Shown here: in pieces, positions 32,635-56,843 of the stretch
How positions within the stretch are numbered: the first letter of the stretch is position 1
How the letters are laid out: every line of letters starts with the position of its first letter
Virus record (IMG/VR): IMGVR_UViG_3300031992_000038
Coordinates: 1-64,000 of that record
From: a virus
Taxonomy: Duplodnaviria; Caudoviricetes
DNA: 64,000 nt
Direction: 5' to 3' (one strand)
The notes under the pieces: generated by a model
Told to the model about the DNA's origin: nothing
The model's input: the letters and a program-made list of their open reading frames with translations, nothing else
Database searches by the model: none
Program-made: the position numbers and the translations under genes

Positions 32635-32637
32635 TTT

Positions 32638-33426: not shown

Positions 33427-33489
33427 AAAACATTCTCGAAGAATATAAATTCCACTGTCTTAATATATGCTCAAACGAAGCTGAAATGT

Positions 33490-33584: not shown

Positions 33585-33598
33585 CGATTAAAAGAAGA

Positions 33599-34417: not shown

Positions 34418-34435
34418 CCCCTACAATAGAAAGCA

Positions 34436-34675: not shown

Positions 34676-34678
34676 GAT

Positions 34679-35541: not shown

Positions 35542-35543
35542 TT

Positions 35544-36263: not shown

Positions 36264-36277
36264 GCAAAGTTAATAAC

Positions 36278-36898: not shown

Positions 36899-36921
36899 AA
36901 CTGTAGCATACAAAGGCAAAA

Positions 36922-37167: not shown

Positions 37168-37188
37168 CAAGAAAAACGTTACATTCAT

Positions 37189-37968
37189 ATGGACTACGAA
37201 AAGAAATACAAAGATGCGCTTGATAGAGCAAAGGAAAAATATAGTGCATGCTCCGCACCGGCGCTTCTCGAATACATTTTCCCCGAACTCAAGGAGAGTG
37301 AGGGTGAAAGAATAGTAAAATGTTTGCTCAACTACTTCAATCATGTCCGTTATAATGGACTTGACCTAAAAGGTACAGATGTTGATGAAGTTATTGCCTG
37401 GCTTGAAAAGCAAGGCGAACAGAAACCTATTGACTATAATGAGGAATTAAAGAAATGTCGAGAAAATCCTTTATATTTCTTTGATAAATATGTGTCTGTA
37501 AAGCTCAAAAACCAAAAGCCAACTTGGGGTAAAGAGGATGAGAAGATAAGGAAAGAACTTATCACACATTTCAGAAATACAAGATGTGTAACAGAAGAAG
37601 GAGGTGAAACAATAGCAAAATGGATTGCTTGGCTTGAAAAGCAGAAAAATACCACAGACAAAGAGTACGTGTTTAGACCGTTGGCAGGTGACACCATCGA
37701 AAAAGCGGCGGAGCGAGCGGTTGAATTGGACGGTAAAGTTGTTCTGGCGTTCAATGGCGCTTACATACCGGTAGGTGATAAAACAAAAGATGAAATTGTC
37801 GCAGAATATCGCAATTGGGTTAAAAAGCAAGGCAAGCAACATTCTCATGTTGATATTGACAAGATGGTTGATGAATTTGCCGATACTGAAGTCGAGGGCT
37901 ATGGCCTTCCGAGTATGATTGAGGTAGATGCATATCGTAGGGACATTGAAGATGCGCTCGAAAAATAA
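37189..37968 (+). CDS. YEKKY/AWLEKQ family protein
   Basis: Repeated ...IAWLEKQ modules. Confidence 0.75.
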   Translation: MDYEKKYKDALDRAKEKYSACSAPALLEYIFPELKESEGERIVKCLLNYFNHVRYNGLDLKGTDVDEVIAWLEKQGEQKPIDYNEELKKCRENPLYFFDKYVSVKLKNQKPTWGKEDEKIRKELITHFRNTRCVTEEGGETIAKWIAWLEKQKNTTDKEYVFRPLAGDTIEKAAERAVELDGKVVLAFNGAYIPVGDKTKDEIVAEYRNWVKKQGKQHSHVDIDKMVDEFADTEVEGYGLPSMIEVDAYRRDIEDALEK

Positions 37969-38015
37969 CGTGAGCGTGAATGTCGTAGTTGTTGAACGAA
38001 TAAAAGATTGAGATT

Positions 38016-38492
38016 ATGACACAGGAAGAATTATATCAACAATATCTTGATGAGGTGAGTTCATTTGAAAGATATGGCAGCAAAAATGTTCTTACGTTTG
38101 ACGAGTGGAAATGGATTAAATCCACAATAGAGAATACTCGACCGGTATGTGAATCTGAACTAAATTCATACAAAGAATTATTGGGTCACACAACTCAAGA
38201 TATTGATACGTTAGAATAAGAAAAATTTTGAAACAACATGAAAGTTTGGTTAACTCTTGAAAAGGACCATTTTGGTACCGATAAAGTAATGTTGTGGTTC
38301 GATAAGCCGCAAAAGGTATATGATAAATTTCTTGGGAGAGAAACCTGGACTTTGGGGGAATACGCACATTTTTACTACCCGCTCTTGACATTAAAAGATG
38401 TCAACTATCTGGTAACTGAAGAGAACTCACCGCTTGAAATATATCTTCCGTTCATGCGTGAATTTGTTGTCGATCAAACCAAGTTAATTTGA
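38016..38492 (+). CDS. Two small hypothetical genes (38016..38219, 38238..38492)
   Basis: ATG ORFs in a co-directional cluster. Confidence 0.6.
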
Positions 38493-38496
38493 AATT

Positions 38497-39411
38497 ATGA
38501 AAGAACTTACTATAGAACAAAAAGCAAAAGCCTATGACGAGGCTTTAGAACGGGCGAAGAAATTGCAAGAAACTTGCGACAGTACGGCAGTAGTAGGATG
38601 GTGTGAGTATATCTTACCAGAACTCAAAGAGAAAGAGAGCGAGGACGATAGAACGAGAAAAGCAATACTTACAGGACTTATTGACTGTAGAGACGCCCCA
38701 GATTTGGGGTGGAGCGATTTCGGCGGTGTTAATATTGATGAGTGTATCGCTTGGATTGAGAAGCAAGGCGAACAAACTCATGCCGCACTTGACCAACCGG
38801 AAGTGACTAAGACAGGCGACCAAGAACTTGAACCAATGTTTAATGAAGGTGATTGGGTGGTATATGACCACAGACCTTACCAAGTCGTAGAACTTCCAAA
38901 AGAAGGCTATATTAATTTAGGTTTAAGAAGAAATGGAAAAGTCGAATTTGCACCCTCCCCTTATTGCAGACATTGGTCTATACAAGACGCAGAGGACGGC
39001 GATGTGCTGGCATCTGAGTTAACCGACTTCATATTTCTTTTCAGAGGTATTAAGGACAACAAAATTGATTTTTATTGTTCCTACGACACCAGACTCGAAT
39101 GGCCCGAGCCCGAACCTGATGATAGATTCGTCATCAAGGATACCAACCTGTATTATGGAAGGGTAGAAAAATCACAAGACATCCATCCCGCCACCAAAGG
39201 ACAACGAGACCTGCTTTTTGAAAAGATGAAGGAAGAGGGTTATGAATGGGATGGGGAAAAGAAAGAGTTGAAGAAGATTAAGCCCAAGAAACTTGATCCA
39301 GACAAGGTGATCGAGTGGCTGCGTAAAAACACCTGCACGGGTTGTTGGGATAGGGCTGATACAGCGATATCACAACGTATTGACAGATTCAAAAAAGATT
39401 TCAGACTATAA
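38497..39411 (+). CDS. KAKAYDEALERA/AWIEKQG family protein
   Basis: Paralogue of 35544. Confidence 0.75.
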   Translation: MKELTIEQKAKAYDEALERAKKLQETCDSTAVVGWCEYILPELKEKESEDDRTRKAILTGLIDCRDAPDLGWSDFGGVNIDECIAWIEKQGEQTHAALDQPEVTKTGDQELEPMFNEGDWVVYDHRPYQVVELPKEGYINLGLRRNGKVEFAPSPYCRHWSIQDAEDGDVLASELTDFIFLFRGIKDNKIDFYCSYDTRLEWPEPEPDDRFVIKDTNLYYGRVEKSQDIHPATKGQRDLLFEKMKEEGYEWDGEKKELKKIKPKKLDPDKVIEWLRKNTCTGCWDRADTAISQRIDRFKKDFRL

Positions 39412-39444
39412 TAACTGAAGATTACTACAAAACGACAGAATAAA

Positions 39445-40131
39445 ATGGGAACTTCTAAACAGTCACAAAAGGAAATTGGTATAGAGTCAGCCATTCTCCG
39501 CCTAAGGGAACTGCATGACTTGATCAAGGAACATCCATACTGGATGGCCTTCAAGTTCCATATGTTCAAACGTGAGATATATCCAATGTATGAAGAAGTG
39601 TTTGAATTATATTCTTATCTAAGATTCAATAAAGAATATAAAGATTCTGACTCTCCGTGGTTTGCCACAATGTCAACCATTTATCATGATTTTCATTCAA
39701 TGCTCGGAATCCTAATTTACAACCCCAGAATTTTTGAAACGCCGGTTGAGGATACTGACTTGTTCAAACAGTATTACCTTCCGATGTTGCAGAATTTTCT
39801 TCAGATTCTACACTTCTTCGTCGAGGGCATGAATGCGCCGGAAAACATGGTGATGTACATGCCGGACAAGGTCCATAACCCAAAAACCATGCACAAGTAC
39901 ATGCCGGTGTATCACGAGAATTGGAAAGATGAATCAGGATATAACTTTTGGTTTGACGGATATTATAAGTGGAGAGCATTAAAATGCATTAAGAAAGATG
40001 ACGTCAACAAAGCAATCGAAAAATTCAAAAAATTAACGCATGAGACAACAAGTGCGTCTTTAAAAGAATTTTATCAACACGCAATAATGGACATCGAAAA
40101 CGGAACGGCATTGGTACATAAAATCATTTAG
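39445..40131 (+). CDS. Hypothetical protein
   Basis: 228-aa ORF. Confidence 0.7.
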   Translation: MGTSKQSQKEIGIESAILRLRELHDLIKEHPYWMAFKFHMFKREIYPMYEEVFELYSYLRFNKEYKDSDSPWFATMSTIYHDFHSMLGILIYNPRIFETPVEDTDLFKQYYLPMLQNFLQILHFFVEGMNAPENMVMYMPDKVHNPKTMHKYMPVYHENWKDESGYNFWFDGYYKWRALKCIKKDDVNKAIEKFKKLTHETTSASLKEFYQHAIMDIENGTALVHKII

Positions 40132-40152
40132 TAACACCATACAAAGTTGAAG

Positions 40153-40470
40153 ATGGACAAGATTCTTGACCTACCGCTCAAGAAAGAGTTGCACGAATTG
40201 ATTGGTCCAACCAAGGAGGATATTGCAATGCTTTATGAGAACGAGTCTAGGGAACTACTGAATGAGGCGGCCGCGGCCGACAACAGCGGCTCGTTCGAGA
40301 CCGTCGTATTCCCCATCATCCGCAGGGTATTCTCGAAACTGCCTGCAAACGACTTGGCGAATGCGCATCTCATAGAAGAGTTTCCAACGACCTTTCCTAC
40401 CCATGAATGGGCTGAGGTCATCGGCAACATCCATGATAATCCCGAACTACTAGAAAGTGACACAAACTGA
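40153..40470 (+). CDS. Chimeric ORF: major-capsid-protein fragment plus YopX-like tail
   Basis: LYENESRELLNEA...SGSFETVVFPIIRRVFSKLPAND (gp23-like N-terminal region); EVIGNIHDNPELL (YopX C-terminus). Confidence 0.6.
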   Translation: MDKILDLPLKKELHELIGPTKEDIAMLYENESRELLNEAAAADNSGSFETVVFPIIRRVFSKLPANDLANAHLIEEFPTTFPTHEWAEVIGNIHDNPELLESDTN

Positions 40471-40669
40471 AGGCAAGTGTATGACAATGGACAAGGAGAA
40501 CGGAACGTCATTGGTACGCAAAATCATTTAGGAACGCCACACGGAGCACGAAAAAGTCAAGAAAAATTTTGTTAAGGATTTTTAACACCGAAAATTTGCC
40601 CCGACCGGTTATTATGCTTACCTTCCCACCATAAGCAAAAAGTTAAACCATTCAGACAAAATTCATAAG

Positions 40670-43111
40670 ATGACTAAAATCTCCAAATTCCACGAGCTAA
40701 TCAAGAACGCCCACATCGAGAAGGACGTCGAGAGCGTATACACCCAGGGCATCACCATGTATTTCCCTGAGGCTGATATTGAACACCCGTTCGCGTGCGA
40801 CAGTTTCATCGACACGAAGACTGACAACGGCAAGATGCTCAAGCTCATCATCGAGTACAAGTTCGATGAGGACTTCTCGACCCGAACCGCACGCTCAAAG
40901 GTCATCGCACAGGTGCTTTATTACATGAAGCGCTTCGAGCAGAACGGCATGATTCTTCCCAACGTTGTCATGGTCGGCGACGTGAACGAGTGCTTCGTGT
41001 TCCACAGCAACGACATCATCAAATACCTCGACGAGGACATCGACTGGACAATCGCCCCGTCAGAGGCCCATCACCGCAACCCAGACCTTGTCATGAAGCT
41101 GAACGACGACGAGAACGTCAACCCGTTCATATTCCGCATTGACGAGCATTTCTCGTTCAAGAGCGTTGTAGAGCGCATCAAACAACTCGCCGACAACATC
41201 CAGCGGTACGTGCACGTGACCGAGCACAACATCGCCACCATATTCGAGTACTTCTGCGACAGGGTAATCAAGGACCGCAAGAAGATTCAGGCGAACGACC
41301 TCGTCGCCGTGTTCATGGGAGTGATAACGAAGGGGGAGAACTACTACAAGCACCCTAACAAGAAGAACACGCTCGTCACGCCGTTCGGGAACATCAGCAT
41401 CAACTCGGACGGGTACGACTCGTTCTTCTCGTACTTCAACCGCAACTACACGCCGCAGGAGAAGAACCGATTCGCCGAGATTTCGGACCGACTGATTGAG
41501 GATACGAACCGCAGAAACAAAGGGGAGTTCTACACTCCGACCTTGTTCGTGGACTATGCCCATAAGATGATTGCCGAGCAGTTCGGAGAGGACTGGAAGG
41601 AGAAGTACGTGGTGTGGGACAATAGCGCAGGAAGCAAGAATCTCACCCGTGACTACTACTTCAAGGAACTGTATTCGTCAACGCTCGAACAGGCCGAACT
41701 TGACATCTCATCACAATATAATAAGGAGGCGACGTCATTCCAGTTCGACTTCCTCAACGACCCGTTGGAGAAACTTCCGCAGGGGCTGAAGGACGCGCTT
41801 GAACAGGACAAGCCCATCATCTTCTTCATGAATCCGCCTTATGCTACAGCAGCAAGTGGAAAGGGAAAAGATGGGAAAACAAACGTTTCAAATACAATTG
41901 TTTATGATACAATGATTGATGATTGTGGAAGGTGCAGCCAGAATCTTTATGCACAGTTCATCTACCGTATCATGATGATTAAGCGTAAATATAATTTGAC
42001 AGACTGTCACATAGCTATGTTCACCAAAACCTTGCATTTGACAGGTAGTAGTTGGAAGAAATTTAGGGATGAATTCTTCAAAGATTTCAATTATATCAAT
42101 GGATGCATGTTCAATGCTTCTCACTTTGCTGACTGTTCTGATAAATGGGGCATTTCATTTGCTATATGGAAATCAAATATGCCAAACAGCATTGATAATT
42201 TCACACATATTCTAATTGATAGCAAAGACGGTGAAATTGTTAATGTTGGCGAAAAAACATTATACAATATGGACAGCCAACAATCCGCAAGCGATTGGGT
42301 AAGAGAGGGGATAAAGGGGATTGAAAAAGAATTAAGACCACACCTTTCAAGCGCAATAACGATTTCGGAGAAACAAAATCAAACGCTAGCGAAAAATGCG
42401 TTAGGAAGTCTAATGTCGTTATCAAATAATGTATATGAAAACGCACAAGGCGTTGGTTTGTCTTCAACAATTCAAACAAAAGGCAGCGCATGCATTTCAA
42501 TATCTATTCTTCCGACGAATTTCACCCGTTGCACCTCTCTGTTCGCGGCCCGCAAGTTAGTAGTCGGTAACTGGATTAACGACAAGGACGAGTACATGGC
42601 ACCGAACACGGAGCACGAGAAGTGGCAGGAGTTCGAGAGTGACAGTGTTGTCTATTCGCTGTTCAACACCTCTTCCAATCAGTCTTCTCTCCGCAATGTG
42701 GAGTACAAGGGCAAGTCATGGGACATCAAGAACGAATTTTTCTGGATGTCCAAGGACGTGATGATGGCATTGGCCGAGGAGTTCTCCAACGACTACTGCT
42801 ACAACGACGCCCGCGTGTCAGACGAGCGATATGTGTACAAACTCCTTCAGGGAATGGAGTTGAGCAAGGAGGCGCGTGACGTCCTGCTGAAGGCAACGCA
42901 GATTGTCGCCAAGTCGTTCCCTTACCGACAGATGTTCAACGAGGAGCATCCAGAGTATCAGGTAATTAACTGGGATTGCGGATGGTACCAGGTCAAGGCG
43001 ATTGCAAAGGAATACCTGAAGGATGACCTTGAGGAGTTCAAAGCGCTCTACAAGAAACTCTCGGAGAAGATGCTCCCGATGGTGTATGAACTAGGGTTCT
43101 TGAGAAAGTAA
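40670..43111 (+). CDS. Type IIG-like restriction/methyltransferase fusion
   Basis: N-terminal D...IIEYK nuclease-like motif; GEFYTP, VWDNSAGSKNL and FMNPPY. Confidence 0.75.
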   Translation: MTKISKFHELIKNAHIEKDVESVYTQGITMYFPEADIEHPFACDSFIDTKTDNGKMLKLIIEYKFDEDFSTRTARSKVIAQVLYYMKRFEQNGMILPNVVMVGDVNECFVFHSNDIIKYLDEDIDWTIAPSEAHHRNPDLVMKLNDDENVNPFIFRIDEHFSFKSVVERIKQLADNIQRYVHVTEHNIATIFEYFCDRVIKDRKKIQANDLVAVFMGVITKGENYYKHPNKKNTLVTPFGNISINSDGYDSFFSYFNRNYTPQEKNRFAEISDRLIEDTNRRNKGEFYTPTLFVDYAHKMIAEQFGEDWKEKYVVWDNSAGSKNLTRDYYFKELYSSTLEQAELDISSQYNKEATSFQFDFLNDPLEKLPQGLKDALEQDKPIIFFMNPPYATAASGKGKDGKTNVSNTIVYDTMIDDCGRCSQNLYAQFIYRIMMIKRKYNLTDCHIAMFTKTLHLTGSSWKKFRDEFFKDFNYINGCMFNASHFADCSDKWGISFAIWKSNMPNSIDNFTHILIDSKDGEIVNVGEKTLYNMDSQQSASDWVREGIKGIEKELRPHLSSAITISEKQNQTLAKNALGSLMSLSNNVYENAQGVGLSSTIQTKGSACISISILPTNFTRCTSLFAARKLVVGNWINDKDEYMAPNTEHEKWQEFESDSVVYSLFNTSSNQSSLRNVEYKGKSWDIKNEFFWMSKDVMMALAEEFSNDYCYNDARVSDERYVYKLLQGMELSKEARDVLLKATQIVAKSFPYRQMFNEEHPEYQVINWDCGWYQVKAIAKEYLKDDLEEFKALYKKLSEKMLPMVYELGFLRK

Positions 43112-43141
43112 GGAATATATTGCTTAATCGTTTATAATTTC

Positions 43142-43600
43142 ATGGAAATAAAGTTCAAGACGAAAGATGAGATAGAAAGCATTGCTCTTCACGAGTTGAG
43201 AAAGTCGCCAAACAAGAAACTGCTCAGCAACACGAACGTGGACTGTTTCATAAGCGGGTGGAATGCCGCGTCGAACGACATCAGGTCACAGATGACCGCG
43301 GAGAAACTGAAAGAGTTCAGGGAGTATCTGAAGGAACTGTCGGAGTACTGCGACGAGAGAATGAGACGTCAGAACGAAGACCTCGGTTACAGCGGTTATA
43401 TGTACACGGTTCCCAGCGACGCGCAGTTGATATTTGAACTGTGGAAACGTGTCGGTGAAGCCTGTGAGACGATAAGCGCGAACCTCGAGAACGTCAAAAT
43501 GAGCCGCGGCGAGTATTACGACAAGGTGAAAGGATGCGGGGATGAATCCACTACACCTTTGCTATGCCGGATTCATGGGAGACAGATGAAAGCATTTTAA
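43142..43600 (+). CDS. Hypothetical protein
   Basis: 152-aa ORF. Confidence 0.7.
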   Translation: MEIKFKTKDEIESIALHELRKSPNKKLLSNTNVDCFISGWNAASNDIRSQMTAEKLKEFREYLKELSEYCDERMRRQNEDLGYSGYMYTVPSDAQLIFELWKRVGEACETISANLENVKMSRGEYYDKVKGCGDESTTPLLCRIHGRQMKAF

Positions 43601-43680
43601 CCATTTTTAACGAAATAAAATTGTTCATCTCAGAAACTTTGTGTACCTTCCACAATCAGAAAACAAAATGTTTTGTCATT

Positions 43681-44139
43681 ATGGACAGATTCAAAGCAAT
43701 ACAGGACGAGATTATCAGCAAGTACCGCGTGAACATTGACGCCAATTCCACGTGCCGGACACGGACGCATGCCCACGTGAGGGAGCGCAGGGTGTGCAAA
43801 TGGGTGCGGAAGAACAGTTTCGAGAGCACGTTCACGCTCCTTCATGAGGTTGGTCACATAGAGACGAAAAAGTCCTCGATGCGCCGTTCCGAGAGCGAGT
43901 ATTATGCGACGTGTTGGGCGTTGGATAGATGCCGCGAATACGGTCTGCAGGTGCCGGAGAAGACCCTCCACGTGTATCAGCGGTACATCCTTCAGGAAGT
44001 CGCGAGAGGCAAACGCAGGGGCGGGTGCGGATACGGAGAGTTGAACATTTACAAGTATTACGGCATTGACAAGACAATCAAGCAGTTCGTAGGCGAGCTG
44101 GAACCGGCGTGGGCGAGATGCATAGCGCCGTGGATTTAG
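43681..44139 (+). CDS. HExxH metallopeptidase-like protein
   Basis: TLLHEVGH with downstream ESEYYA. Confidence 0.65.
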   Translation: MDRFKAIQDEIISKYRVNIDANSTCRTRTHAHVRERRVCKWVRKNSFESTFTLLHEVGHIETKKSSMRRSESEYYATCWALDRCREYGLQVPEKTLHVYQRYILQEVARGKRRGGCGYGELNIYKYYGIDKTIKQFVGELEPAWARCIAPWI

Positions 44140-44203
44140 CTGTTAAGTTTTTGGATTGAGGTTTCTTTCGGGTTATATTCTTATTTAAGACTAAATAAAG
44201 ATT

Positions 44204-47200
44204 ATGAAAAAATTTGCAAACCTCCAGAAGGAGGTAAAGACTGTCAAATTTGGGCTTAAGCCAATTGGAATGACAGAAAAGTTCATCAAGGATAGAGGTC
44301 TCCTTGACGCGCAGTATTCAATCAACGACAGACTGGAAGAGGCGAAACTGGTCCTTGACCGTGTATATCTCGATGTCCTCAGCCGAAGTATGTCGTCCAT
44401 TGACCCGAAAATCGCTGACGGGTTGTATGACGTGTGGCTGAAAGACCAGAAAAAGTTCACTAACAGCAATGAGTTCAATTCCGCTAAAGATACATTTGTT
44501 GGCAAAATTAAAGGATATATTAGAGAACTAATTAAAACCGAGAAAGAAAATTATGACTTTAATGTCAATAATATCCTAAACGATATAGACACCTTCTGCG
44601 GTGGGGATGATGTCTTAAAGAGCGAACTACACAGCATTAAGAATGACTTTAGCGGACGTTCAGCTTATTTCACGGAATATTGCACCAGCAAAAACCCTGC
44701 ATTGTTCGGAACCGAAACAAATTCTTCCTCATATCGTGTCTTTAATGAGAACCTTGTGACATTCTTCAAGAATGTGAAAGCGTTCCGCTCAATCAGTCCT
44801 GATCAAATGACGACGGTTCTTAAATTTGTTGATGGTCTCGATGAAATCATGGTACCGGATAATGGTTTGAAGTATATTCTGCAATCAGACATTGACGTGT
44901 ATAATAAGGTGATTGCTGAATACGCTTCTGCGCGACAGGAACTCCAAAGCAAGGACAAGGGGTTGAGCCTTCCGAAACTTGAGAAACTCGCGAAGCAGAT
45001 TCTTTCTGAGGCCGAGAAGAAATTCCAGCCAATCGAGAGTGACGAGGAGGTGTTTTCGTTCCTGGACGAGAACATCGAAGACCTTACGTCCGCAATATTG
45101 AAACTGAAAGAGTTGTTCAGTGGGATTGGTTCGATTTATGACAAGGAGAAAATCCTGATTGCAAAGAAGGTGAAGGCTAAAAAGGATGAATTCTCCATGA
45201 TTTCGAACGCCTGCATGCATAGTTGGGACGGAATAAAGAACCTAATCATAGAGAACTGGAAGGCTGAAAATCCTAAGGGTAAGGAAAACGTAAAGGACAA
45301 GAAAGCAAACAAATTCTACAAGCAGTTAAGCAATATTTCATTGCTTGAACTTGAAAAAATCACGAACAGTGATGCGGCAACATCTTATCTGATCGGACTA
45401 GGCGAGAAGAACGACAGAGAACTTCAGGAGGCTGACCTTGCTTCACTCGCCATAAACGCTTACAACGTGTTCAAGGAAGAACACGAGAAGGGTCTTGACA
45501 AGAGACTCAAGAACATTGATAACTCAAAGAACATAAACGCATTCTTTGACACGCTGATTAGACTGAAGGACTTCATCTCCCAGATATATGTCGGAGAGGG
45601 CATAGATGACACCTGCGAGTTCTATCAGGAACTTCTTCCTGCGAAATGCAAACTCGAGGAGGTTGTCAGTGAGTGGGTAAGAATCCGAAGTTACCTCACC
45701 AAGAAGGACTACATTCAGAACGAACTGCGTGTCTATTTCGGATTGAACGCGAATTTGATGGGTGGGTGGACACACAAAGAGAATGGTGAGTTTCCAAAAC
45801 GTTCAATTATGTTCAAGGGTGTCGGGGACGATTATTATGTCGGAATTCTTGCTGGGGTTTCCAGTGCCAAAAAGATTTTAAATGGAGAAATAGGTGACGG
45901 AAGATTCCGATATCTTGACATAACAAATTATGACAAAAAGAATATCGAAAGACTTGTTCAAACTTTTTGTGGTGGCAAGAAACCAGATGAAGATGGCCTT
46001 ATTAAAGTCCTCACAAGCAAAGAATGGGCACAAAAGTACCCAAAGTTAGTTTTGGAGAAAACCGATGGGTTCAGCAGTACAGACGAAATCTATAAATCAC
46101 TTTGCCATCAAGAAATGAGATGGGTTGCATGTTCACGCGAAGCCGTAGACACGATGGTTGAGAGTGGTGATTTGTATCTCTTCAAACTTTCTTGTCGGGA
46201 TTTCAGCAAGCATTCAAAAGGTAATCCACAACTGTACACTATGTACCTGCGTGCGCTGTTAAGTGACGACAATCCGATTGGAAGATATTTCATCAATGGT
46301 AACGGAAAAATCACTTTCAGACCGAGGACAGTTGTCGACAATACAAATATTGGTGATTTCGCCATCCACAGGGCAAATTTCCCCATTGATAACAAGCGGA
46401 ACATTGAAGGCGGTGAGAAAAGTGCCACGTATCCATATGACATTGAGAAGAACAAGCGTTTCAAGTCGGATTCATGGTTCATCAGTTTACCGTTATCCGT
46501 GAACGAAGGCAAGAAAATCACCCAAAAGGAAATCAATGACCTTGTCAACGGCATGATTTCAACCGGTGAGATTAAGCACGTCATCGGTATTGACCGCGGC
46601 GAAAGGAACCTTGTCACCGTATCTATCGTGAACAAGGACACAATGGAAATCGTTGAGCAAAGAAGTCTGAACATCATCGGCAACACAGACTATAACAAAC
46701 TCATGGATGAGATGAGCGAGAACGTTAAGGATGATAGGAACAATTTGCGATTGGAAAGTTCGATGAGAAACATGTCCGAAGGTTATGTCAGCCATGCCGT
46801 GAATGAAATAGTACAACTTGTCAGGAAATACAATGCAGTAATCGCGATGGAAAACCTGGACAATCTTGGGCGCGGTAAAATCATCAAGAACATCTACACG
46901 AAGTTCGAGAACCAGTTATTGGACAAACTGTCGTTCATGGTGTTCAAGGATGTTGACAAGAACGACATTGGTGGCGTATACAATCCGCTCACGATGGCAA
47001 TAAAGAAGACGGACCAAACTAAATATGAAAAAACGTTGTCGCAGAACGGTATTGTTTTTTCGGTATTGCCTCAATACACATCAAGCATCGACCCTGTAAC
47101 TGGTTTTGCGAATGTGCTTGACATGCAGAATGTGAAGACTATTGACTCGATCAAGAAGTTCTTCTACTCATTCGACTATATACGCTATGACAAGGAACAT

Positions 47201-47824
47201 GACCATTTCGTGTTTGGCGCCGACTGGAAGAAATTCAAACTAAAGAACAGTGTAAAGGTGAATGAATTGAACAGGACCGAATGGACACTTGTGTCAAGTG
47301 GAATAAGGATCAGGTACAAAAAGACAAAGAACAGTTCGCACCGAACCATTGAGGAGCATGACCCTACTGAGGAACTCAAGAGAGCCATCGGAAGGTCTGG
47401 AAACAATTTCATGGAATGCGGAAACATCAAGAACATAATCATGAACCAGGACTCACATGACATCCTTGACGAATTCCTTGATGCGGTAAAACTGATTCTG
47501 CAGATGAGAAACAGCAAAGGGGAAGAGGACTACATCCTGTCACCGGCGCTAGACGAAAACGGAAAGCAGTTTGACTCACGTGAGCGTCATGGACAAACAA
47601 TGCCGAAAGACGGTGATACGAATGGCGCTTACAATATCGCAAGACGGGCCGTTATGCTCATCAGGAATGGTGATGACAATAAATATGACAGCAATGTGCA
47701 CTGGTTGAATTTTGCGCAAACCGAAGGAAGAATGCAAACCTTAGGTAATGTGCAAAGTACAAATTTTGACAACGAGTTCAAAACTAATGAGTTATGTTAT
47801 TCCGCATCGAAAAGGGTGGGGTAA
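44204..47824 (+). CDS. cas12a: Type V-A CRISPR effector Cas12a (divergent, 1206 aa)
   Basis: N-terminal KTVKFGLKPIG; RuvC-I IGIDRGERNL; RuvC-II IAMENL; YTSSIDPVTGF; LQMRNS; RuvC-III DGDTNGAYNIARR; adjacent V-A-like array. Confidence 0.93.
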   Translation: MKKFANLQKEVKTVKFGLKPIGMTEKFIKDRGLLDAQYSINDRLEEAKLVLDRVYLDVLSRSMSSIDPKIADGLYDVWLKDQKKFTNSNEFNSAKDTFVGKIKGYIRELIKTEKENYDFNVNNILNDIDTFCGGDDVLKSELHSIKNDFSGRSAYFTEYCTSKNPALFGTETNSSSYRVFNENLVTFFKNVKAFRSISPDQMTTVLKFVDGLDEIMVPDNGLKYILQSDIDVYNKVIAEYASARQELQSKDKGLSLPKLEKLAKQILSEAEKKFQPIESDEEVFSFLDENIEDLTSAILKLKELFSGIGSIYDKEKILIAKKVKAKKDEFSMISNACMHSWDGIKNLIIENWKAENPKGKENVKDKKANKFYKQLSNISLLELEKITNSDAATSYLIGLGEKNDRELQEADLASLAINAYNVFKEEHEKGLDKRLKNIDNSKNINAFFDTLIRLKDFISQIYVGEGIDDTCEFYQELLPAKCKLEEVVSEWVRIRSYLTKKDYIQNELRVYFGLNANLMGGWTHKENGEFPKRSIMFKGVGDDYYVGILAGVSSAKKILNGEIGDGRFRYLDITNYDKKNIERLVQTFCGGKKPDEDGLIKVLTSKEWAQKYPKLVLEKTDGFSSTDEIYKSLCHQEMRWVACSREAVDTMVESGDLYLFKLSCRDFSKHSKGNPQLYTMYLRALLSDDNPIGRYFINGNGKITFRPRTVVDNTNIGDFAIHRANFPIDNKRNIEGGEKSATYPYDIEKNKRFKSDSWFISLPLSVNEGKKITQKEINDLVNGMISTGEIKHVIGIDRGERNLVTVSIVNKDTMEIVEQRSLNIIGNTDYNKLMDEMSENVKDDRNNLRLESSMRNMSEGYVSHAVNEIVQLVRKYNAVIAMENLDNLGRGKIIKNIYTKFENQLLDKLSFMVFKDVDKNDIGGVYNPLTMAIKKTDQTKYEKTLSQNGIVFSVLPQYTSSIDPVTGFANVLDMQNVKTIDSIKKFFYSFDYIRYDKEHDHFVFGADWKKFKLKNSVKVNELNRTEWTLVSSGIRIRYKKTKNSSHRTIEEHDPTEELKRAIGRSGNNFMECGNIKNIIMNQDSHDILDEFLDAVKLILQMRNSKGEEDYILSPALDENGKQFDSRERHGQTMPKDGDTNGAYNIARRAVMLIRNGDDNKYDSNVHWLNFAQTEGRMQTLGNVQSTNFDNEFKTNELCYSASKRVG

Positions 47825-47895
47825 ACAACTAAAAAGAAGAAAAGACCAAAGCCGCTCATTTCCAATGGGTTGGATTAAAAACTTGGGCGGATAGG

Positions 47896-48597
47896 GTCTA
47901 TCAAAGATAAGAAATACCTACTTGTGTAGGTTTTTATGGACACAATGTCCGACTCTGCGGTCTATCAAAGATAAGAAATACCTACTTGTGTAGGTGGAGT
48001 GGTGCAGACAGATGTCCGATAAAGTCTATCAAAGATAAGAAATACCTACTTGTGTAGGTTATATAAAACCATGAAAAAATGAAGTAGTCTATCAAAGATA
48101 AGAAATACCTACTTGTGTAGGTCTTGATTGAGACGATGTCCGACTCTGCGGTCTATCAAAGATAAGAAATACCTACTTGTGTAGGTTAATCAGTTGGGCG
48201 GAGAAATTAAGCGCGTCTATCAAAGATAAGAAATACCTACTTGTGTAGGTGACATCTCACTTCCATGCTCCTTCAAAGTCTATCAAAGATAAGAAATACC
48301 TACTTGTGTAGGTCGGTTGTCAAACTTGATTCCTGTCTTCGTCTATCAAAGATAAAAAATACCTACTTGTGTAGGTTAAGGAGGGCTTACAGGCTATTGG
48401 GATGGTCTATCAAAGATAAGAAATACCTACTTGTGTAGGTAGGTTATTAGTTATTTTCAGCGTTTTCGTCTATTAAACATAAGAAATATCTACTTGTGTA
48501 GGTATTGGGACTTGACAAACTTACAATTCTTCGTCTATTAAAAATAAGAAATACTTACTTGTGTAGGTACAATTGGACACCAAGTCTATTAAAGATA
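47896..48597 (+). CRISPR. CRISPR array: 11 full 36-bp repeats plus a truncated 12th; ten spacers of 27-29 bp and a final 15-bp spacer
   Basis: Repeat GTCTATCAAAGATAAGAAATACCTACTTGTGTAGGT starts at 47896, 47960, 48024, 48087, 48151, 48215, 48278, 48341, 48405, 48468 and 48533; partial at 48584; degenerates distal to cas12a. Confidence 0.98.
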
Positions 48598-48762
48598 TTA
48601 ATCTGAAATTCATACTTCCTCAAGAAGTAAAAAACTTCTAACTGATTATTTGATATGGAAAACAATAACGGTTGGTCGCTTAACCGGGACGCCTGAAAAG
48701 GCGACACATTGGTGTTAGATGGCAAAACTTGACACAATAATTGGTACAAAACATTAAATAAT

Positions 48763-49146
48763 ATGGACCACACTATTACAATGTACACATGGGAGGTCGT
48801 TCTTTTCCTGTTTCTATACCTCGCGCTTTTCTTCTATGTCATATGGTCAAAGTCAAAAAGACAGTTGAACCCGGACATGTTTGATCGTGAAGGTGAAGTC
48901 AAACCGGTTGTTTTCAAGATAGTGAAGGCGGAAATGTCCGCAACGACGAAGTGTGAGGACGGTCCGCCAGTCCACCGCATGCTATGTAAGTACACCGCGG
49001 TCAACAGTTTTTTCAGAAAGCCGGGACTCAAAGACTACGAGTGCGACTTCTACGTGTTCTACGACGTCGCTGGCAAGTACAATATCGGCGATACGCTCAA
49101 ATTGGACAGTGTGTCGAAGGAATGCGACAATGTTAAACAAAACTAA
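48763..49146 (+). CDS. Hypothetical membrane-anchored protein
   Basis: N-terminal TM segment VVLFLFLYLALFFYVIW. Confidence 0.7.
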   Translation: MDHTITMYTWEVVLFLFLYLALFFYVIWSKSKRQLNPDMFDREGEVKPVVFKIVKAEMSATTKCEDGPPVHRMLCKYTAVNSFFRKPGLKDYECDFYVFYDVAGKYNIGDTLKLDSVSKECDNVKQN

Positions 49147-49220
49147 AGACTTGCCGATGTAAGATTTTTTTCCTATCTTTGCTCTCGTTGTCCAAAAAAC
49201 GATAATAAGGAGAATAAGAC

Positions 49221-49463
49221 ATGGCACTAAAATTAAGAAAAGATTCTGATTTCTATACACGAGTGATGAACGTCATCCAAGCAATGGAAGAAAATAATGT
49301 TAGGATTGAATGTGTTGATGGCGAATTTCGTATTTCTGATACAACTGAAGGGGCATCAGAACGACTTCAAGACATGATTCTGCATGATGGTGAGAATGAA
49401 CCTGTTCGAGTATTACCTTCAGATTTTGACACTGAATACACATTAAAAGTTTTTGATTCTTAA
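49221..49463 (+). CDS. Hypothetical protein
   Basis: 80-aa ORF; TATCTTTG promoter at 49174. Confidence 0.7.
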   Translation: MALKLRKDSDFYTRVMNVIQAMEENNVRIECVDGEFRISDTTEGASERLQDMILHDGENEPVRVLPSDFDTEYTLKVFDS

Positions 49464-49486
49464 TTGGTTTAAAAGCGCAGACAAGA

Positions 49487-49520
49487 AAATCCGCCGATTG
49501 CGAAAAGCGTCGGCGGATTT
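49487..49520. terminator. Hairpin between convergent genes
   Basis: AAATCCGCCGA...TCGGCGGATTT, similar to the hairpin at 58291-58324. Confidence 0.7.
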
Positions 49521-49566
49521 GTGCATCTATAGGTCACGGCCTCAAATGACCGGGCGGTCTGACGTG

Positions 49567-50058
49567 TCAACGTTTGTACTTCGCCTTGGCGTCATATATG
49601 CAATTGTCCAGCTCGCTGTAGAACTGTCCGCTAAGGTACTGCAGTCGCTTCTCGTACTCGTACTCTTCGTAGTGGTCATAGAACTCTTCTTCCGGAACCT
49701 TGTCGTATATTTCGTTCTCGTTGCTCGCCGGCATCACCTCGTCAAGGTCGAAATCGAGAGTGAATGCGGTGCTTTTAAGGCCACATATGACGGTGTCGCG
49801 CAGGAACTCATCGCCGCCTGCGGCGTTGATCGCATTCAGCACCTTTTCCATCTGTTGCTGCTCGATTTGCAAGTAGCGGAGCGCTGACGGGTTGTGCAGT
49901 TTTTCGTCCGCCTGTGACACCAGTTCCGCGAACTCGTTGTATATATTCTCCAGCGGTGCCGTGTCGACACTTGACGATGACTCGTTCAGTGCACGCCTAA
50001 CGCTTTCCGAGACAATTCTTCTTATATAGTTTCTGGTGATGTTTGCTTTTCTTGCCAT
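49567..50058 (-). CDS. Hypothetical protein with leader
   Basis: ITRNYIRRIVSESVRRALNES; TATTTAT at 50081-50087. Confidence 0.75.
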   Translation of the reverse strand: MARKANITRNYIRRIVSESVRRALNESSSSVDTAPLENIYNEFAELVSQADEKLHNPSALRYLQIEQQQMEKVLNAINAAGGDEFLRDTVICGLKSTAFTLDFDLDEVMPASNENEIYDKVPEEEFYDHYEEYEYEKRLQYLSGQFYSELDNCIYDAKAKYKR

Positions 50059-52879: not shown

Positions 52880-54745
52880 ATGAGCAAACAAGAAGAATAT
52901 CTGAAGTGTTACCAAGACAAGACACGGATATACTTTATAGAACACTACCTGTCCACATACAACGCTGACGACAGGAAGGAGACCCCGTTCATTCTATTCC
53001 CGAGGCAGAAGGAGTTCCTCCGCAGTCTCGCCACCAACCAGAACACGATAGCAATCAAGCACAGGCAGGCCGGAATCACGACAGTGTCAAGCGCCTGGAT
53101 AACCGGACAGTGCGTGTTCGCGAACAAGAAGTCGCCGGAGACAGTGCTGTGCATAGGGAACAGTCTTGACATATCACAGCAGCTGCTTGACAAAATGGGC
53201 ACGTTCATCGACCAAGTCCCGAGGTGGATGTGGGGCGGCGACTATTACTCGCCGGACCCGAACAGCCCGAAGAACTCCAAGTCCATATTCAAGACGAGGA
53301 ACCAGAAGATGATAGAACTCGTCAACGGATGCAAACTGTACGCACGCTCGTCAGGACCGCACGCCGCGCGAGGAATCTCGGCCGTGTCAATACTGATATT
53401 CGACGAGGCGGCGTTCATACAGGACGGTCCTGCGGTCTATGCCCAGGCCGTCGCAGCGCAGTCGTCAGTCGGCGAATCGTCTAGATGCATCATGGTGTCG
53501 ACACCAAACGGCAAGGACCAATTGTACTACAAGACATACGCCAATGCGATCAGCGGCGAGAACAACTACCATCCAGTCGAGTTCAAGTGGTTCCAGGACC
53601 CGAGGTACAACCGCAACCTCAAATGGTACAAGCTAGACAGTTCGACCGGCGAGATGAAGTGGGACATCGACCAAGTGGTGAACCGCCGCGGCGACATCGT
53701 CTATGATGAGGAAAGATGGCGCTCGCTTGAGCGGGACGGATGGACTCCGACTTCTCCGTGGTTTGAGGGGATGTGCAAGACACTCAACAATGACGAAATG
53801 CGCATAGCGCAGGAGCTGCTCGTGTCATTCCTCGGTTCTTCGGACAACGTTCTCCAACCTGAAGTGATTGACTTCCACCGCACGGCAAACGTCGTCGACA
53901 TCACAGACGACTGGCCGCTGCGAGATCCCCTTATAAAGGAGACGTGGATATGGAAAGACCCGGTTCCGTCGCACCGATACATCGTGGCGTGCGACGCGTC
54001 GACCGGTTCGTCCGAGGACCGCACGGCGATAGAAGTGATAGACATAGACGCCAAAGACGACCGCGGCGTTCCTTATTTCGACCAAGTGCTCGAATACTAC
54101 GGGAAAATGACGGGCGACGAGATAGGGGAGATGCTGTACAATTACGGGAGGGCGTACAATGACGCGCTGATCATCGTCGACTGCATCGGAGGGTACGGTG
54201 ACGCCGCGATACTCACGCTCATGAACCTCGGTTACACGAACCTGTACTACGACGAGCCGCAACTGAAGACATATGTGGCAATGAACCAATACTCTCCGTC
54301 CGCGCAGTCAGACACGCTCCCCGGTTTCAGGTCGAACAACCTGCGCATACAGATGCTGAGCAATTTCGTCACACTTCTCAAGACCAACGCGCTCAGAATA
54401 CGCAGCCGCCGCGTGATCACCGAACTCGAGACATGGGTGTGGAAGAACGGGCGTCCGGACCATATGGACGGCGCGCATGACGACAGCATAACGTGCCTGG
54501 CAATGGGCGGCTTCATCATACAGTTCTACCTCATGAAGAACGAGGAGAGCAAAAGACGCGACGCCGCAATCGTGAAGTCGTGGTGCGTCAACAACTCATA
54601 CGAGCGGCGCGAGACGCAGGCCAGCAACGGAACGGCGAACAATCACCCGATGCCGATATATTCGTCGCGCAGCATGGAGATGGACCGCCAGCGGAGGCTG
54701 CAGGCGATGCTCATGATAGGCGGATTCGGCAGGAAAAAGCGTTGA
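52880..54745 (+). CDS. Terminase large subunit (T4 gp17-like)
   Basis: KHRQAGITT, LIFDEAAF, VSTPNG, IAQELL, VACDAS, HDDSI. Confidence 0.93.
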   Translation: MSKQEEYLKCYQDKTRIYFIEHYLSTYNADDRKETPFILFPRQKEFLRSLATNQNTIAIKHRQAGITTVSSAWITGQCVFANKKSPETVLCIGNSLDISQQLLDKMGTFIDQVPRWMWGGDYYSPDPNSPKNSKSIFKTRNQKMIELVNGCKLYARSSGPHAARGISAVSILIFDEAAFIQDGPAVYAQAVAAQSSVGESSRCIMVSTPNGKDQLYYKTYANAISGENNYHPVEFKWFQDPRYNRNLKWYKLDSSTGEMKWDIDQVVNRRGDIVYDEERWRSLERDGWTPTSPWFEGMCKTLNNDEMRIAQELLVSFLGSSDNVLQPEVIDFHRTANVVDITDDWPLRDPLIKETWIWKDPVPSHRYIVACDASTGSSEDRTAIEVIDIDAKDDRGVPYFDQVLEYYGKMTGDEIGEMLYNYGRAYNDALIIVDCIGGYGDAAILTLMNLGYTNLYYDEPQLKTYVAMNQYSPSAQSDTLPGFRSNNLRIQMLSNFVTLLKTNALRIRSRRVITELETWVWKNGRPDHMDGAHDDSITCLAMGGFIIQFYLMKNEESKRRDAAIVKSWCVNNSYERRETQASNGTANNHPMPIYSSRSMEMDRQRRLQAMLMIGGFGRKKR

Positions 54746-54791: not shown

Positions 54792-56843
54792 ATGGCAAAA
54801 CCGACAATTTTTCAAAGACTGACCAACATATTCTCGGACTCCCCCAAGACATCGAAGACTGTCAACAGGTACGGCATCGACGCCAACGACATACTGTTCA
54901 GGACGACCGACAAGGACGAGTTCGACTCAAAGAAACTTGAGTACAGACAGCAGAACTTGCTGGCGAGACAGTGGAGGCGCGCCCAGTACGACGTGGCCAA
55001 CAGACAAGTGGCCGGGCTGAACGAGGTGAAACTCATGTACCGCGACGCCGACCTTATGGACACATTCCCCGAGATCGGGGCGGCGCTTGACATCGTGTCG
55101 GAAGAGGCGTGCACGATAAAGAACAGCGGATACATGGTGAACGTGACCTCGAAGTCCGACCGCGTGGCGTCCATACTGAGGGACCTGCTCGTCAACAGGC
55201 TGTCAATACACACGACACTTCCGATGGTGTGCCGCAGCATGTGCAAGTACGGCAACACATACATGCTCCTCAACACGGACATGGACAACGGCGTGATGGG
55301 ATGGAAACAGTTGCCGGTCTATGAGATGGAAAGGTACGAGAACGGCATGCTCAACGCATACGCATCACCCGGAATAAGCATGTCGGCGATAAACCCTGAC
55401 AAGTCAACGTCGACCAAGTTCGTGTGGGTCGGGAACAACGAGTTCATCGCCTACCAGAACTGGCAGGTCGCCCACTTCAGGCTTCTGTACGACTCGCTGT
55501 ACCTACCGTACGGCATGTCATATCTCGCAAAGGCGAGGAGGCATTTCCGCATGCTGTCAATGATGGAGGACATGATGCTCATATACCGCCTCGAGAGGTC
55601 GGTCGAGAGAAGGGTGTTCAAGATAAACGTCGGAACTATCGACGACGCGGACGTTCCGGCATACGTGCAGCAGATAGCGGACAACTTCAAGAGGACACCG
55701 GTGATCGACCCTATGACCGGTCAGATTGACCTGCGAAAGGGCGTCATGTCGCAGATGGACGACTATTTCATCCCTGTCAGGGACCCGAACGAGCCGAACC
55801 CGATCGAGACACTGGCGGCGGCGCAGAACATGAACGCGATGGACGACATCAAGTTCGTTCAGAACAAAGTCATGACAGCGCTCCGAGTGCCAAAGTCGTT
55901 CCTGAACTTCGAGGAGGAGAAGGGTGACGGAAAAAACCTGTCGATGCTTGACGTGAGGTTCACGAGGACAGTGAACAGAATACAGCAGGCGCTTCTCATG
56001 GAACTCAACAAGATATGCATCATACACCTGTACCTGCTCGGTTTCGTCGACGACCTCACGAACTTCACACTCACTATGAACAACCCGTCCTCACAGGCCG
56101 AGATGCTTGAATTCGAGAACCTCGCCAAGAAGATAACCACGGCAAAGGACGCCGTGTCGGACGCTGGAAACGGAATACCGGTCTACTCGCTCGCAAGGGC
56201 GTGGAGGGAAATTCTCGGATGGTCAGACAAGGAAATCGAGGAGAACCTCGACAACCTGCGCCTCGAGAAAGCGCTCGCGGCGGAACTCGAGAACACGAGC
56301 GACATCATCAAGAGGACAAGGATATTCGACAAGATAGACAACGTGTACGGCGAACCCGGCGCAGAATACGGACAGTCGTCCGGCGGACAGGGTGACGAAG
56401 GTCCCGGCGGCGGAGGCCCCGGCGGAGGAGGATTCGGCGGCGGCATGGGTTCGTTCGATTTCGCTGACGAAGAAGGCGACATGTCAGGCATGGGAGAAGA
56501 AGGCGACATGGGAATGGACATGGCGGCCGGCGAGGATATCGGCGGAGAAGGCGGCGAAGAGACGAATGGCGGGCCTGAGGCCGCTCCACCGCAAGAGTCG
56601 ATATCGCGCATGATGGACCGGGCGCTCAAACAGTCGCTCAACGAGCAGGAACGCATCAAGAACGAACTGATTGAGAAGAGCCGACGGTACACACAGATGC
56701 TCAAGGAACGAAAGAGCGGAACGCGCATGACCAACGAACCGTCGACAAGCGAACCAACATTGTCGGACAAGACATTCCTCGTCAACGAGGAACTGAACGC
56801 CGTGTCGCAGGAACTCAAGAAGATAATCAACCCCACCAAGTAG
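54792..56843 (+). CDS. Portal vertex protein (T4 gp20-like)
   Basis: MEDMMLIYRLERSVERRVFKINVG, DDYFIPVR, ALRVPKSFL; Gly/Glu-rich tail. Confidence 0.93.
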   Translation: MAKPTIFQRLTNIFSDSPKTSKTVNRYGIDANDILFRTTDKDEFDSKKLEYRQQNLLARQWRRAQYDVANRQVAGLNEVKLMYRDADLMDTFPEIGAALDIVSEEACTIKNSGYMVNVTSKSDRVASILRDLLVNRLSIHTTLPMVCRSMCKYGNTYMLLNTDMDNGVMGWKQLPVYEMERYENGMLNAYASPGISMSAINPDKSTSTKFVWVGNNEFIAYQNWQVAHFRLLYDSLYLPYGMSYLAKARRHFRMLSMMEDMMLIYRLERSVERRVFKINVGTIDDADVPAYVQQIADNFKRTPVIDPMTGQIDLRKGVMSQMDDYFIPVRDPNEPNPIETLAAAQNMNAMDDIKFVQNKVMTALRVPKSFLNFEEEKGDGKNLSMLDVRFTRTVNRIQQALLMELNKICIIHLYLLGFVDDLTNFTLTMNNPSSQAEMLEFENLAKKITTAKDAVSDAGNGIPVYSLARAWREILGWSDKEIEENLDNLRLEKALAAELENTSDIIKRTRIFDKIDNVYGEPGAEYGQSSGGQGDEGPGGGGPGGGGFGGGMGSFDFADEEGDMSGMGEEGDMGMDMAAGEDIGGEGGEETNGGPEAAPPQESISRMMDRALKQSLNEQERIKNELIEKSRRYTQMLKERKSGTRMTNEPSTSEPTLSDKTFLVNEELNAVSQELKKIINPTK

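Follow-up and report, generated by a model that had tools for sequence, protein, structure and literature searches.

According to the survey by Al-Shayeb et al. 2020 (PMC7162821), the CRISPR-Cas systems of huge phages usually lack Cas1, Cas2 and Cas4, and their compact arrays are directed at rival phages. The effectors presented there include the miniature Cas12j (CasPhi), Cas12-lambda and V-F/V-U proteins, and no type V-A system is listed in the passages considered here. Other reports (PMC12676247; 6-3_NODE_18_674, PMC11748809) describe a Cas12a or Cas12a-like protein encoded by a phage, with a compact array but no accompanying cas genes, like the locus presented here. The canonical proteins (LbCas12a, Lb2Cas12a, FnCas12a, AsCas12a) belong to type V-A loci, in which cas12a is typically adjoined by cas4-cas1-cas2, genes that are inessential for interference. 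Cas12a reads a T-rich PAM on the 5' side, makes staggered cuts in dsDNA and degrades ssDNA in trans. A related nuclease, Cas12a2, shares with Cas12a the type of crRNA handle and the WED/RuvC core; from the work of Dmytrenko and colleagues in 2023, it is said to have a zinc ribbon where Cas12a has Nuc.

The system described here is another instance of this known phage weapon type, not a new type. It belongs to a very large sheep-gut phage, which carries its own Cas12a and a small CRISPR array. As in the huge-phage systems of the survey cited above, the phage exceeds 200 kb, the array is compact (11 repeats), the catalytic residues are conserved, adaptation genes are missing nearby and a use against rival phages is presumed; the effector differs, being a full-size Cas12a of 1206 aa. 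The locus is probably a working type V-A interference module, consisting of Cas12a and a self-processed array, on a huge ruminant-gut phage of at least 330 kb.

The window, 64,000 nucleotides, is the first part of a 115,873-bp virus record of IMG/VR (IMGVR_UViG_3300031992_000038). The record carries a T4-like portal and terminase, and the same genes are present on a 330,287-bp ruminant-gut contig, so that the preliminary description of the Cas12a as phage-encoded is borne out; with a genome of at least 330 kb, the record is only about one third of it. Pfam returned no match to Cas1, Cas2 or Cas4 over the whole record (about one third of the genome), which extends to 115,873 bp an absence first claimed for the window. 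The canonical locus of P0066, used as a control, shows Cas1 and Cas2 next to cas12a. The genes upstream (40670–44139) were considered as parts of the system and rejected: none is matched by Pfam or PHROG, or credibly by PADLOC, and loci L002 and L003 do not conserve them beside cas12a. Rfam gave no match in the window, a sigma-70 promoter scan gave fewer matches than expected from shuffling, and the predicted terminators are the repeat hairpins themselves. The effector gene and its unusual parts are the following.

44204–47824, plus strand: cas12a gene (P0001), encoding a 1206-aa type V-A effector from a divergent lineage (TIGR04330, PADLOC, Pfam, AlphaFold)
45854–46171, plus strand: shortened PAM-interacting (PI) region between WED-II and WED-III, residues 551–656 (length comparison, hhalign, fragment model)
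46745–46747, plus strand: codon of Leu-848, which stands where the bridge helix otherwise has its anchor Trp (alignment of representatives)
47720–47821, plus strand: C-terminal extension, residues 1173–1206 (alignment, pLDDT)

P0001 is a genuine but unusually divergent Cas12a. Its score against TIGR04330, the NCBI equivalog model of Cas12a, is 557.2 bits (cut-off 300), 15 Cas12a models of PADLOC match it (best E 4e-192), and hhalign aligns residues 2–1182 to Cas12a with a probability of 100%. A sequence search of the PDB gave 26 matches, all of them Cas12a. Pfam recognizes RuvC_1 (7e-52), NUC (6e-37) and, weakly, REC1. REC2 is without a Pfam match, and the bridge-helix anchor is altered; the fold of the REC lobe and bridge helix is nonetheless predicted by the model and by hhalign. 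The full AlphaFold model (pLDDT 80) superimposes on the LbCas12a-crRNA complex with a TM of 0.77, and the best 50 structural matches of a fold search are all Cas12a. The domain order is that of the canonical proteins, of which Lb2Cas12a even has the same length (1206 aa).

The preliminary description had reported that the catalytic residues are retained, and the alignments agree. The RuvC residues D797, E883 and D1138 and the Nuc arginine R1102 (LQMRNS) fall in conserved columns, and H722, K731 and K749 of the WED RNase are invariant in alignment A1; all are common to P0001 and canonical Cas12a. Nuclease and RNase activities are predicted from these residues only. Metatranscriptome contigs match portions of the gene at 99–100% identity; as DNA carry-over is possible, they argue only weakly for its transcription.

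The largest departure from canonical Cas12a concerns the PI region. From YYVGIL to LYLF, P0001 counts 107 aa and LbCas12a ~140, and the median for the 139 other representatives of Cas12a clusters is 146; the P0001 segment is the shortest among the 143 sequences sampled; the KLLPGxNKMLPK motif is missing, PF22222 does not match P0001, and the position aligned with K538 of LbCas12a is not a Lys. The PI region also has the highest dN of all domains. The claim of a divergent PI region therefore stands as far as length (34–39 aa shorter) and the lost LPGxNKMLPK loop are concerned. It does not extend to the fold: hhalign still aligns the region to Cas12a, and a fragment model that contains it (pLDDT ~90 in the PI region) matches the WED/PI part of LbCas12a and FnCas12a with Z scores of 17–18 over 257–259 residues. 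Because these models match Cas12a structures, the PI domain is, as modeled, trimmed and not absent. Nor is the length unique, as two other Cas12a clusters (P0271 and P0176) have equally short PI segments. Furthermore, K578 and K579 appear to be placed where the PAM lysine loop would be, at a strand-helix junction. In an ESM Atlas feature search, the PI segment reached 0.84 to Cpf1_PI-like clusters, which is below the meaningful level.

At the bridge helix, the anchor Trp reported as replaced is indeed Leu-848. Of the 139 other representatives, 135 have Trp here; P0001 and its two close relatives, P0002 and P0003 (85–88% identity), have Leu, while a more distant one (P0124, 35%) keeps the Trp. 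The lid, also noted as short, lacks 3 aa in P0001, but this deletion is private, the lid of P0002 and P0003 being of full length. The C-terminal extension was read correctly: about 30 additional residues follow WLNFAQ, whereas the canonical proteins stop 3–17 aa past it. This tail is predicted to be disordered (pLDDT <50 from residue 1177) and is kept in P0002 and P0003.

Do these changes, as the preliminary description proposed, give the nuclease a different or relaxed PAM, or an altered trans-cleavage, compared to the TTTV-dependent Cas12a? This is a serious possibility, although somewhat less than an even one. It is suggested by the shortest PI segment in the sample, the missing loop and lysine and the high dN, and even close Cas12a orthologs are known to differ in PAM (PMC7261169). 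The kept PI fold with its two lysines, as placed above, points the other way, and no PAM can be read, since the databases searched yielded no protospacer. The hydrophobic replacements W971A and W971F of the bridge-helix Trp in FnCas12a leave the enzyme active (PMC8136826), and the lid deletion is absent from P0002 and P0003.

The interference module proposed here also comprises the array, which follows the gene after a leader.

47825–47895, plus strand: array leader, nearly identical in L002 and L003, where it likewise lies 5' of the first repeat
47896–48568, plus strand: CRISPR array with 11 repeats (36 nt) and 10 spacers (27–29 nt), the two distal repeats being degenerate
47932–47959, plus strand: spacer 1, leader-proximal synonymous variant of spacer 4 (sequence comparison)
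48123–48150, plus strand: spacer 4, the older variant, with the same protospacer as spacer 1 (sequence comparison)
48569–48604, plus strand: remnant of the old array end, a ~15-nt spacer and a truncated 12th repeat (read from the sequence)

The 36-nt repeats end in a 3' hairpin of the Cas12a type (CCUAC-UUGU-GUAGG), which folds as expected. As in canonical systems, there is no tracrRNA candidate: no anti-repeat of at least 11 nt occurs within 38–54 kb. The handle, AAUACCUAC-UUGU-GUAGGU in the phage and AAUUUCUAC-N4-GUAGAU in canonical Cas12a, is changed at -2, -15 and -16, and the changes covary: the canonical A(-2)-U(-15) pair becomes G-C, and U(-1)/U(-16) becomes U-A. In the L003 repeat, a stem pair shows a compensatory change from U-A to C-G. 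The altered handle probably makes the phage crRNAs partly orthogonal to a canonical host Cas12a. A contig assembled from one DNA run skips 47894–48404, most likely because the repeats collapsed during k-mer assembly. No RNA contig covers the array, which is uninformative given that repeats do not assemble.

Spacers 1 and 4 differ solely at positions 1, 4, 7, 10 and 13, and their reverse complements both encode AESDIVSIK. All five changed wobble sites, out of ten, thus lie in positions 1–13, for which chance is 1 in 252 by our own arithmetic. The differences are confined to the PAM-proximal (seed) half, a pattern that fits escape of the target followed by re-acquisition. The peptide resembles an N-terminal leader common to many of the phage's own proteins, which suggests that the target is a related phage.

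No target was recovered by the searches. The degenerate pattern of spacers 1 and 4 has no credible match in IMG/VR, in 185,579 GTDB species genomes or in JGI metagenomes, and spacers 5, 6, 7, 8 and 10 have none in IMG/VR. A blastn comparison of the whole array with GenBank phages and PLSDB plasmids gave chance-level matches only; there are no self-targets within the 116-kb record, and the phage's spacers do not match any of the fetched loci. A spacer of L020 matching G000:111586–111607 (20 of 22 nt, E 0.006) was judged to be due to chance. The repeat itself was sought in IMG/VR and in the 185,579 GTDB species genomes: the single matches are at chance level and none is accompanied by the upstream repeat half, and no host array with the phage's repeat was found in either collection. 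The spacers might instead hit chromosomal genes of the host, redirecting or killing it, as has been proposed for some huge phages (PMC7162821), and the missing viral protospacer in IMG/VR would agree with this. It is unlikely, considering that the spacer 1/4 pattern is unmatched in the 185,579 species genomes and that the encoded peptide recalls a phage protein leader.

The known members of the lineage are P0001, the two relatives at 85–88% (P0002 and P0003) and P0124, the one at 35%. Their separation from other Cas12a, proposed earlier, is supported by phylogeny: the identity of P0001 to canonical Cas12a is about 25–30%, and the four form a clade with an SH-aLRT of 99–100, in an unrooted tree without outgroup and with support values from quick IQ-TREE and FastTree runs. 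By its description, the sequence of PMC12676247 nests within host Cas12a diversity, whereas P0001 sits on a long branch with only the one relative at 35%. Searches with the clade alignment yielded no further relative in IMG/VR or the JGI metagenomes, and tblastn against GenBank phages matched none. The lineage is rare and fast-evolving. It is under purifying selection, with dN/dS values of 0.26–0.34 in comparisons of three intact copies, which come from different samples; constraint is strongest in the RuvC and Nuc segments (0.07–0.26 in most comparisons). The leader is conserved and the spacer content differs among the 85–88% relatives, L002 having a mini-array with a single spacer. One substitution counts against a working module: directly behind the RuvC-I Asp, where all 139 of 139 others have Arg, P0002 and P0003 have Leu (R798L).

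This substitution, together with the private lid deletion, the single-spacer array of L002 and the absence of adaptation genes from 116 kb, could mean that the system is a decaying or binding-only relic, its nuclease impaired and the module acting at most as a crRNA-guided repressor, or having no activity. Such decay is slightly more doubtful still than host targeting: the reading frame is intact in three samples under the constraint just given, every catalytic residue is kept, and the spacer turnover and seed-escape pair argue for ongoing use. A Cas12a2-like, RNA-triggered nuclease with collateral activity, leading to abortive infection, is very improbable, as the complementarity of the spacer 1/4 crRNAs to the sense (mRNA) strand of the target concerns one protospacer and the altered bridge-helix anchor is set against a strong Nuc match with its Arg and against sequence and fold matches that are all Cas12a; P0001 has both Nuc and bridge helix, in contrast to the zinc ribbon and different bridge-helix insertion of Cas12a2.

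For the working interference module, the steps can be drawn by homology to Cas12a. The conserved leader would drive transcription of the array, and the WED RNase would cut the repeats 5' of the 3' hairpin, yielding crRNAs with a ~19-nt handle and a 27–29-nt guide, without tracrRNA. The single RuvC site and Arg-1102 of Nuc would then cleave PAM-flanked dsDNA, most likely that of rival phages or of further mobile elements sharing the host. Two synonymous alleles of one protospacer would be the targets of spacers 1 and 4, spacer 1 having been acquired after seed escape. Since no adaptation genes are present in 116 kb, new spacers would depend on proteins encoded elsewhere, in the host or in the remaining two thirds of the phage genome.

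Among the Cas12a relatives examined, the closest ones, picked by tree position, are found in phage-like loci without adaptation genes in 7 of 7 cases. The tree neighbours P0256, P0220 and P0263 belong to the same supported subset of 21–22 tree rows as P0001 and come from gut-metagenome contigs of 9–12 kb (L020–L023), which carry cas12a and an array without Cas1, Cas2 or Cas4 and consist largely of small genes lacking annotation or of DNA methylases. They differ from P0001, with ~30% identity to it, in their longer PI segment (191–224 aa), the kept bridge-helix Trp and canonical or near-canonical handles. A bolder and rather speculative proposal is that P0001–P0003 and P0124 are a phage-specialised lineage, in which the minimal PI region and the re-paired handle give a non-TTTV or relaxed PAM and no guide cross-talk with a host Cas12a; spacers 1 and 4 would then be left over from an arms race of seed escape among huge rumen phages, with the conserved leader at the N-terminus of many of their proteins as a possible target.

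None of these findings overturns the current understanding of Cas12a. They extend the CRISPR systems known from huge phages by a full-size effector of type V-A, and the phage-like loci of all seven relatives suggest that Cas12a may circulate among gut phages more than appreciated. The two synonymous spacers offer a compact natural record of escape in the seed region and of renewed targeting. Given the trimmed PI region and the co-varied handle, it is reasonable to look to this lineage for a different PAM and for orthogonal crRNAs, both of which would be useful for multiplexed editing.

The IMG/VR virus record that begins with the window is 115,873 bp long, with a CheckV completeness of 32%. 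A 330,287-bp ENA contig of sample ERZ27257202 also encodes the Cas12a protein, together with one that is encoded at the far end of this record, so the element is a huge phage. Matching DNA occurs in public runs of sheep and cattle gut metagenomes, from 12 studies. Most of the ORFs of the window other than those listed here have no Pfam or PHROG match.

Features of the phage and of the CRISPR locus in the window
40670-44139, three co-directional genes (813, 152 and 191 aa), directly upstream of cas12a
44204-47824, + strand, cas12a ORF (P0001, 1206 aa)
71 nt directly after the cas12a ORF, array leader
47896-48568, CRISPR array, eleven 36-nt repeats and ten spacers of 27-29 nt
52880-54745, T4-like large terminase
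54792-56843, portal

The cas12a gene lies within a low-GC stretch (0.38-0.47 over ~31-50 kb, against 0.50-0.55 in the rest of the phage), which may be accessory or recently acquired. This region (~31000-50000) also holds an N6/N4 DNA methylase (33599-34417) and many unannotated genes, next to the CRISPR module. No family match was obtained for the three upstream genes, save a marginal PglZ-like match of the third (E 5e-4), and they do not adjoin cas12a in L002 or L003, the loci of its two closest relatives.

By sequence, catalytic residues and predicted fold, P0001 is a Cas12a. It scores 557 bits with the NCBI equivalog model for Cas12a/Cpf1 (cut-off 300), and all PADLOC Cas12a models match it (best E 4e-192). 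Pfam detects RuvC_1, NUC and a weak REC1, and neither REC2 nor the PAM-interacting (PI) domain; canonical homologues have a strong REC2 match and, in most cases, a PI match. In a profile-profile comparison with 30 canonical sequences, the clade of P0001 aligns with 100% probability across residues 2-1182. The AlphaFold2 model of residues 1-1200 (mean pLDDT 80.4, pTM 0.70) superposes on LbCas12a-crRNA complexes with a TM of 0.77, and the best 50 fold matches are all Cas12a. The retention of the RuvC acidic triad (D797, E883, D1138), the Nuc arginine (R1102) and the crRNA-processing residues (H722, K731, K749), claimed in the preliminary description, is borne out: all occupy conserved or invariant columns. 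P0002 (L002:445-4071) and P0003 (L003:922-4539), the relatives with 88% and 85% identity, have Leu for Arg after the RuvC-I catalytic Asp (IGIDLGERN); this Arg is present in 139/139 other Cas12a representatives, as well as in P0001 and in P0124, a relative with 35% identity. An identity as Cas12a2 is ruled out, because the Nuc domain is present and the listed PDB sequence and fold matches are all Cas12a. Of the type V-A features that could be checked, only the cas4-cas1-cas2 neighbourhood, which is non-essential, is clearly absent.

The PI region had been described as divergent, with a segment roughly 30 aa shorter than in LbCas12a and without the PAM loop. Between WED-II and the LYLF strand, the segment has 107 aa in P0001 and P0124; in P0002 and P0003 it has 108. 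The median in 139 other 50%-cluster representatives is 146 (10th percentile 137), and two other clusters are nearly as short (P0271, 108; P0176, 111). The deficit relative to LbCas12a is ~34 aa, and no LPGxNKMLPK is present in P0001. The predicted fold, however, is kept. In a separate model of residues 485-800, the PI region is confident (pLDDT about 90), and this model matches the WED/PI portion of both FnCas12a and LbCas12a (Z 17-18, 257-259 residues aligned); the PI domain as modeled is thus reduced but still present. Judging by the alignment and by secondary-structure prediction, K578/K579 would sit at the strand-to-helix junction occupied by the canonical PAM lysine loop, which makes them candidate PAM lysines.

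The other deviations noted from the sequence are also found. The anchor Trp of the bridge helix, present in 135 of the 139 other representatives and in P0124, aligns with Leu-848 in P0001-P0003. This replacement need not disable the enzyme, as the W971A and W971F variants of FnCas12a still cleave (PMC8136826). The lid is 3 aa shorter in P0001, but this has no parallel in P0002, P0003 and P0124, where its length is usual. The C-terminal tail extends ~30 aa beyond the canonical end and is predicted to be disordered. Overall, the observations of the preliminary description are confirmed and its interpretation is partly supported.

The array ends distally with two degenerate repeats, followed by a truncated 12th repeat. 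The repeat folds as expected into a 3' hairpin, and in L003 one stem pair is changed on both sides, from U-A to C-G. In Cas12a crRNA numbering, the handle sequence is A(-19)A U A C C U A C U U G U G U A G G U(-1). It was compared with the canonical AAUUUCUAC-N4-GUAGAU, whose numbering and contacts are those of the AsCas12a and FnCas12a structures. The canonical pair A(-2)-U(-15) becomes G-C and the mismatch U(-1)/U(-16) becomes a U-A pair, with U(-10) and A(-18) unchanged. The handles of P0124 and of the tree neighbours P0256, P0220 and P0263 are canonical or near-canonical. That of P0263 has a GTAGAG end and a C at -16, hence a G-C pair at -1/-16. There is no tracrRNA candidate, as no anti-repeat of at least 11 nt occurs within 38-54 kb.

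The absence of cas1, cas2 and cas4 from the window extends to the entire 115,873-bp record, where no match to Cas1, Cas2 or Cas4 was found. The same kind of look-up shows Cas1 and Cas2 directly after cas12a in the canonical control locus of P0066. Adaptation genes could be located in the other 215 kb of the phage, beyond the record. Compact arrays without acquisition genes are the rule in the CRISPR systems of huge phages (PMC7162821). Arrays with the phage repeat handle were found neither in 185,579 species genomes nor in IMG/VR; borrowing of host adaptation machinery by the phage is thus putative.

None of the spacers matches elsewhere in the 116-kb record, and the collections searched yielded no protospacer. 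Spacers 1 (47932-47959) and 4 (48123-48150) are in the same register and differ only at positions 1, 4, 7, 10 and 13. Their reverse strands both encode AESDIVSIK, all five changes being synonymous. As arrays are not under coding constraint, the two spacers must have been acquired separately, from different alleles of the same gene. The PAM-proximal half holds all five changes (a chance of 1 in 252 given ten wobble sites, by our own arithmetic), a pattern consistent with escape of the target through seed changes and its later re-acquisition at the leader end. Spacer 2 (47996-48023) has an in-frame S-D-I codon triplet in common with both. AESDIVSIK and the S-D-I triplet opposite spacer 2 resemble an N-terminal leader found on many of this phage's proteins, for example IKLSESDLHRIV and ITLSESQLRSII. 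By translation, this leader of ~20 aa (K-x-I-[KR]-L-[ST]-E-S-x-L-x-x-I-[IV]-x-E-[SA]-V) opens several unrelated proteins.

Genes in the window with the shared ~20-aa leader
Starts at 715, 10863, 21671, 25271, 29608 and 50058

The spacers may be directed at the 5' gene ends that code for this leader in a related phage. Such a phage is a plausible target, since the spacer-encoded peptide resembles the leader of the phage's own proteins.

P0001-P0003 come from different samples and are all intact, with pairwise dN/dS of 0.26-0.34; constraint is strongest in the Nuc, RuvC-III and WED segments, and dN is highest in the PI region (0.09-0.18; dN/dS 0.30-0.63). Across the three loci the array leader is kept and the spacers vary. 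In the mini-array of L002 (L002:4143-4218), a single full repeat is followed by a 19-nt spacer and a truncated repeat, with converging genes directly after, and the spacer of the L003 array differs. Contigs from sheep-gut metatranscriptomes, which are blind to strand and RNA ends, match parts of cas12a and its neighbours with 99-100% identity, DNA carry-over being possible.

That phages can carry class 2 systems lacking adaptation modules has been known since 2020 (PMC7162821), and individual Cas12a or Cas12a-like sequences associated with phages are also on record (PMC12676247; PMC11748809). The gene adjoining P0124 matches phage families (phrog_7964, E 1e-85). The three tree neighbours, the nearest ones looked up, each have cas12a and an array but no Cas1/2/4, on contigs of 9-12 kb packed with small unannotated genes or DNA methylases. 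The P0256 array has ~50 repeats in two blocks.

Tree-neighbour regions on phage-like gut-metagenome contigs (P0256, P0220, P0263)
L020:8400-11500
L022:9850-10160
L023:6460-7000

The context is phage-like in 7/7 rows examined, picked by tree position and with one control, so a radiation of Cas12a among phages is a lead rather than a result.

Among 5.8 billion clustered proteins, the only close relatives are P0002 and P0003, on contigs of ~5 kb each; the next matches are at ~30% identity. HMMER, run exhaustively against 1.84 billion representatives, added one member, P0124, aligned end to end. The remaining matches have ~30% identity, and the alignment of most is split into at least two pieces, interrupted at the PI region. 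No relatives were found in IMG/VR and JGI metagenomes (pattern scan and tblastn) or in GenBank phages. The distinct clade that had been proposed is recovered: P0001-P0003 and P0124 group together in both FastTree (143 rows) and IQ-TREE (53 rows), with support of 99-100, on a long stem within a supported subset of 21-22 rows, in trees that are star-like and unrooted. P0001 is part of a rare, divergent, phage-borne lineage of Cas12a.
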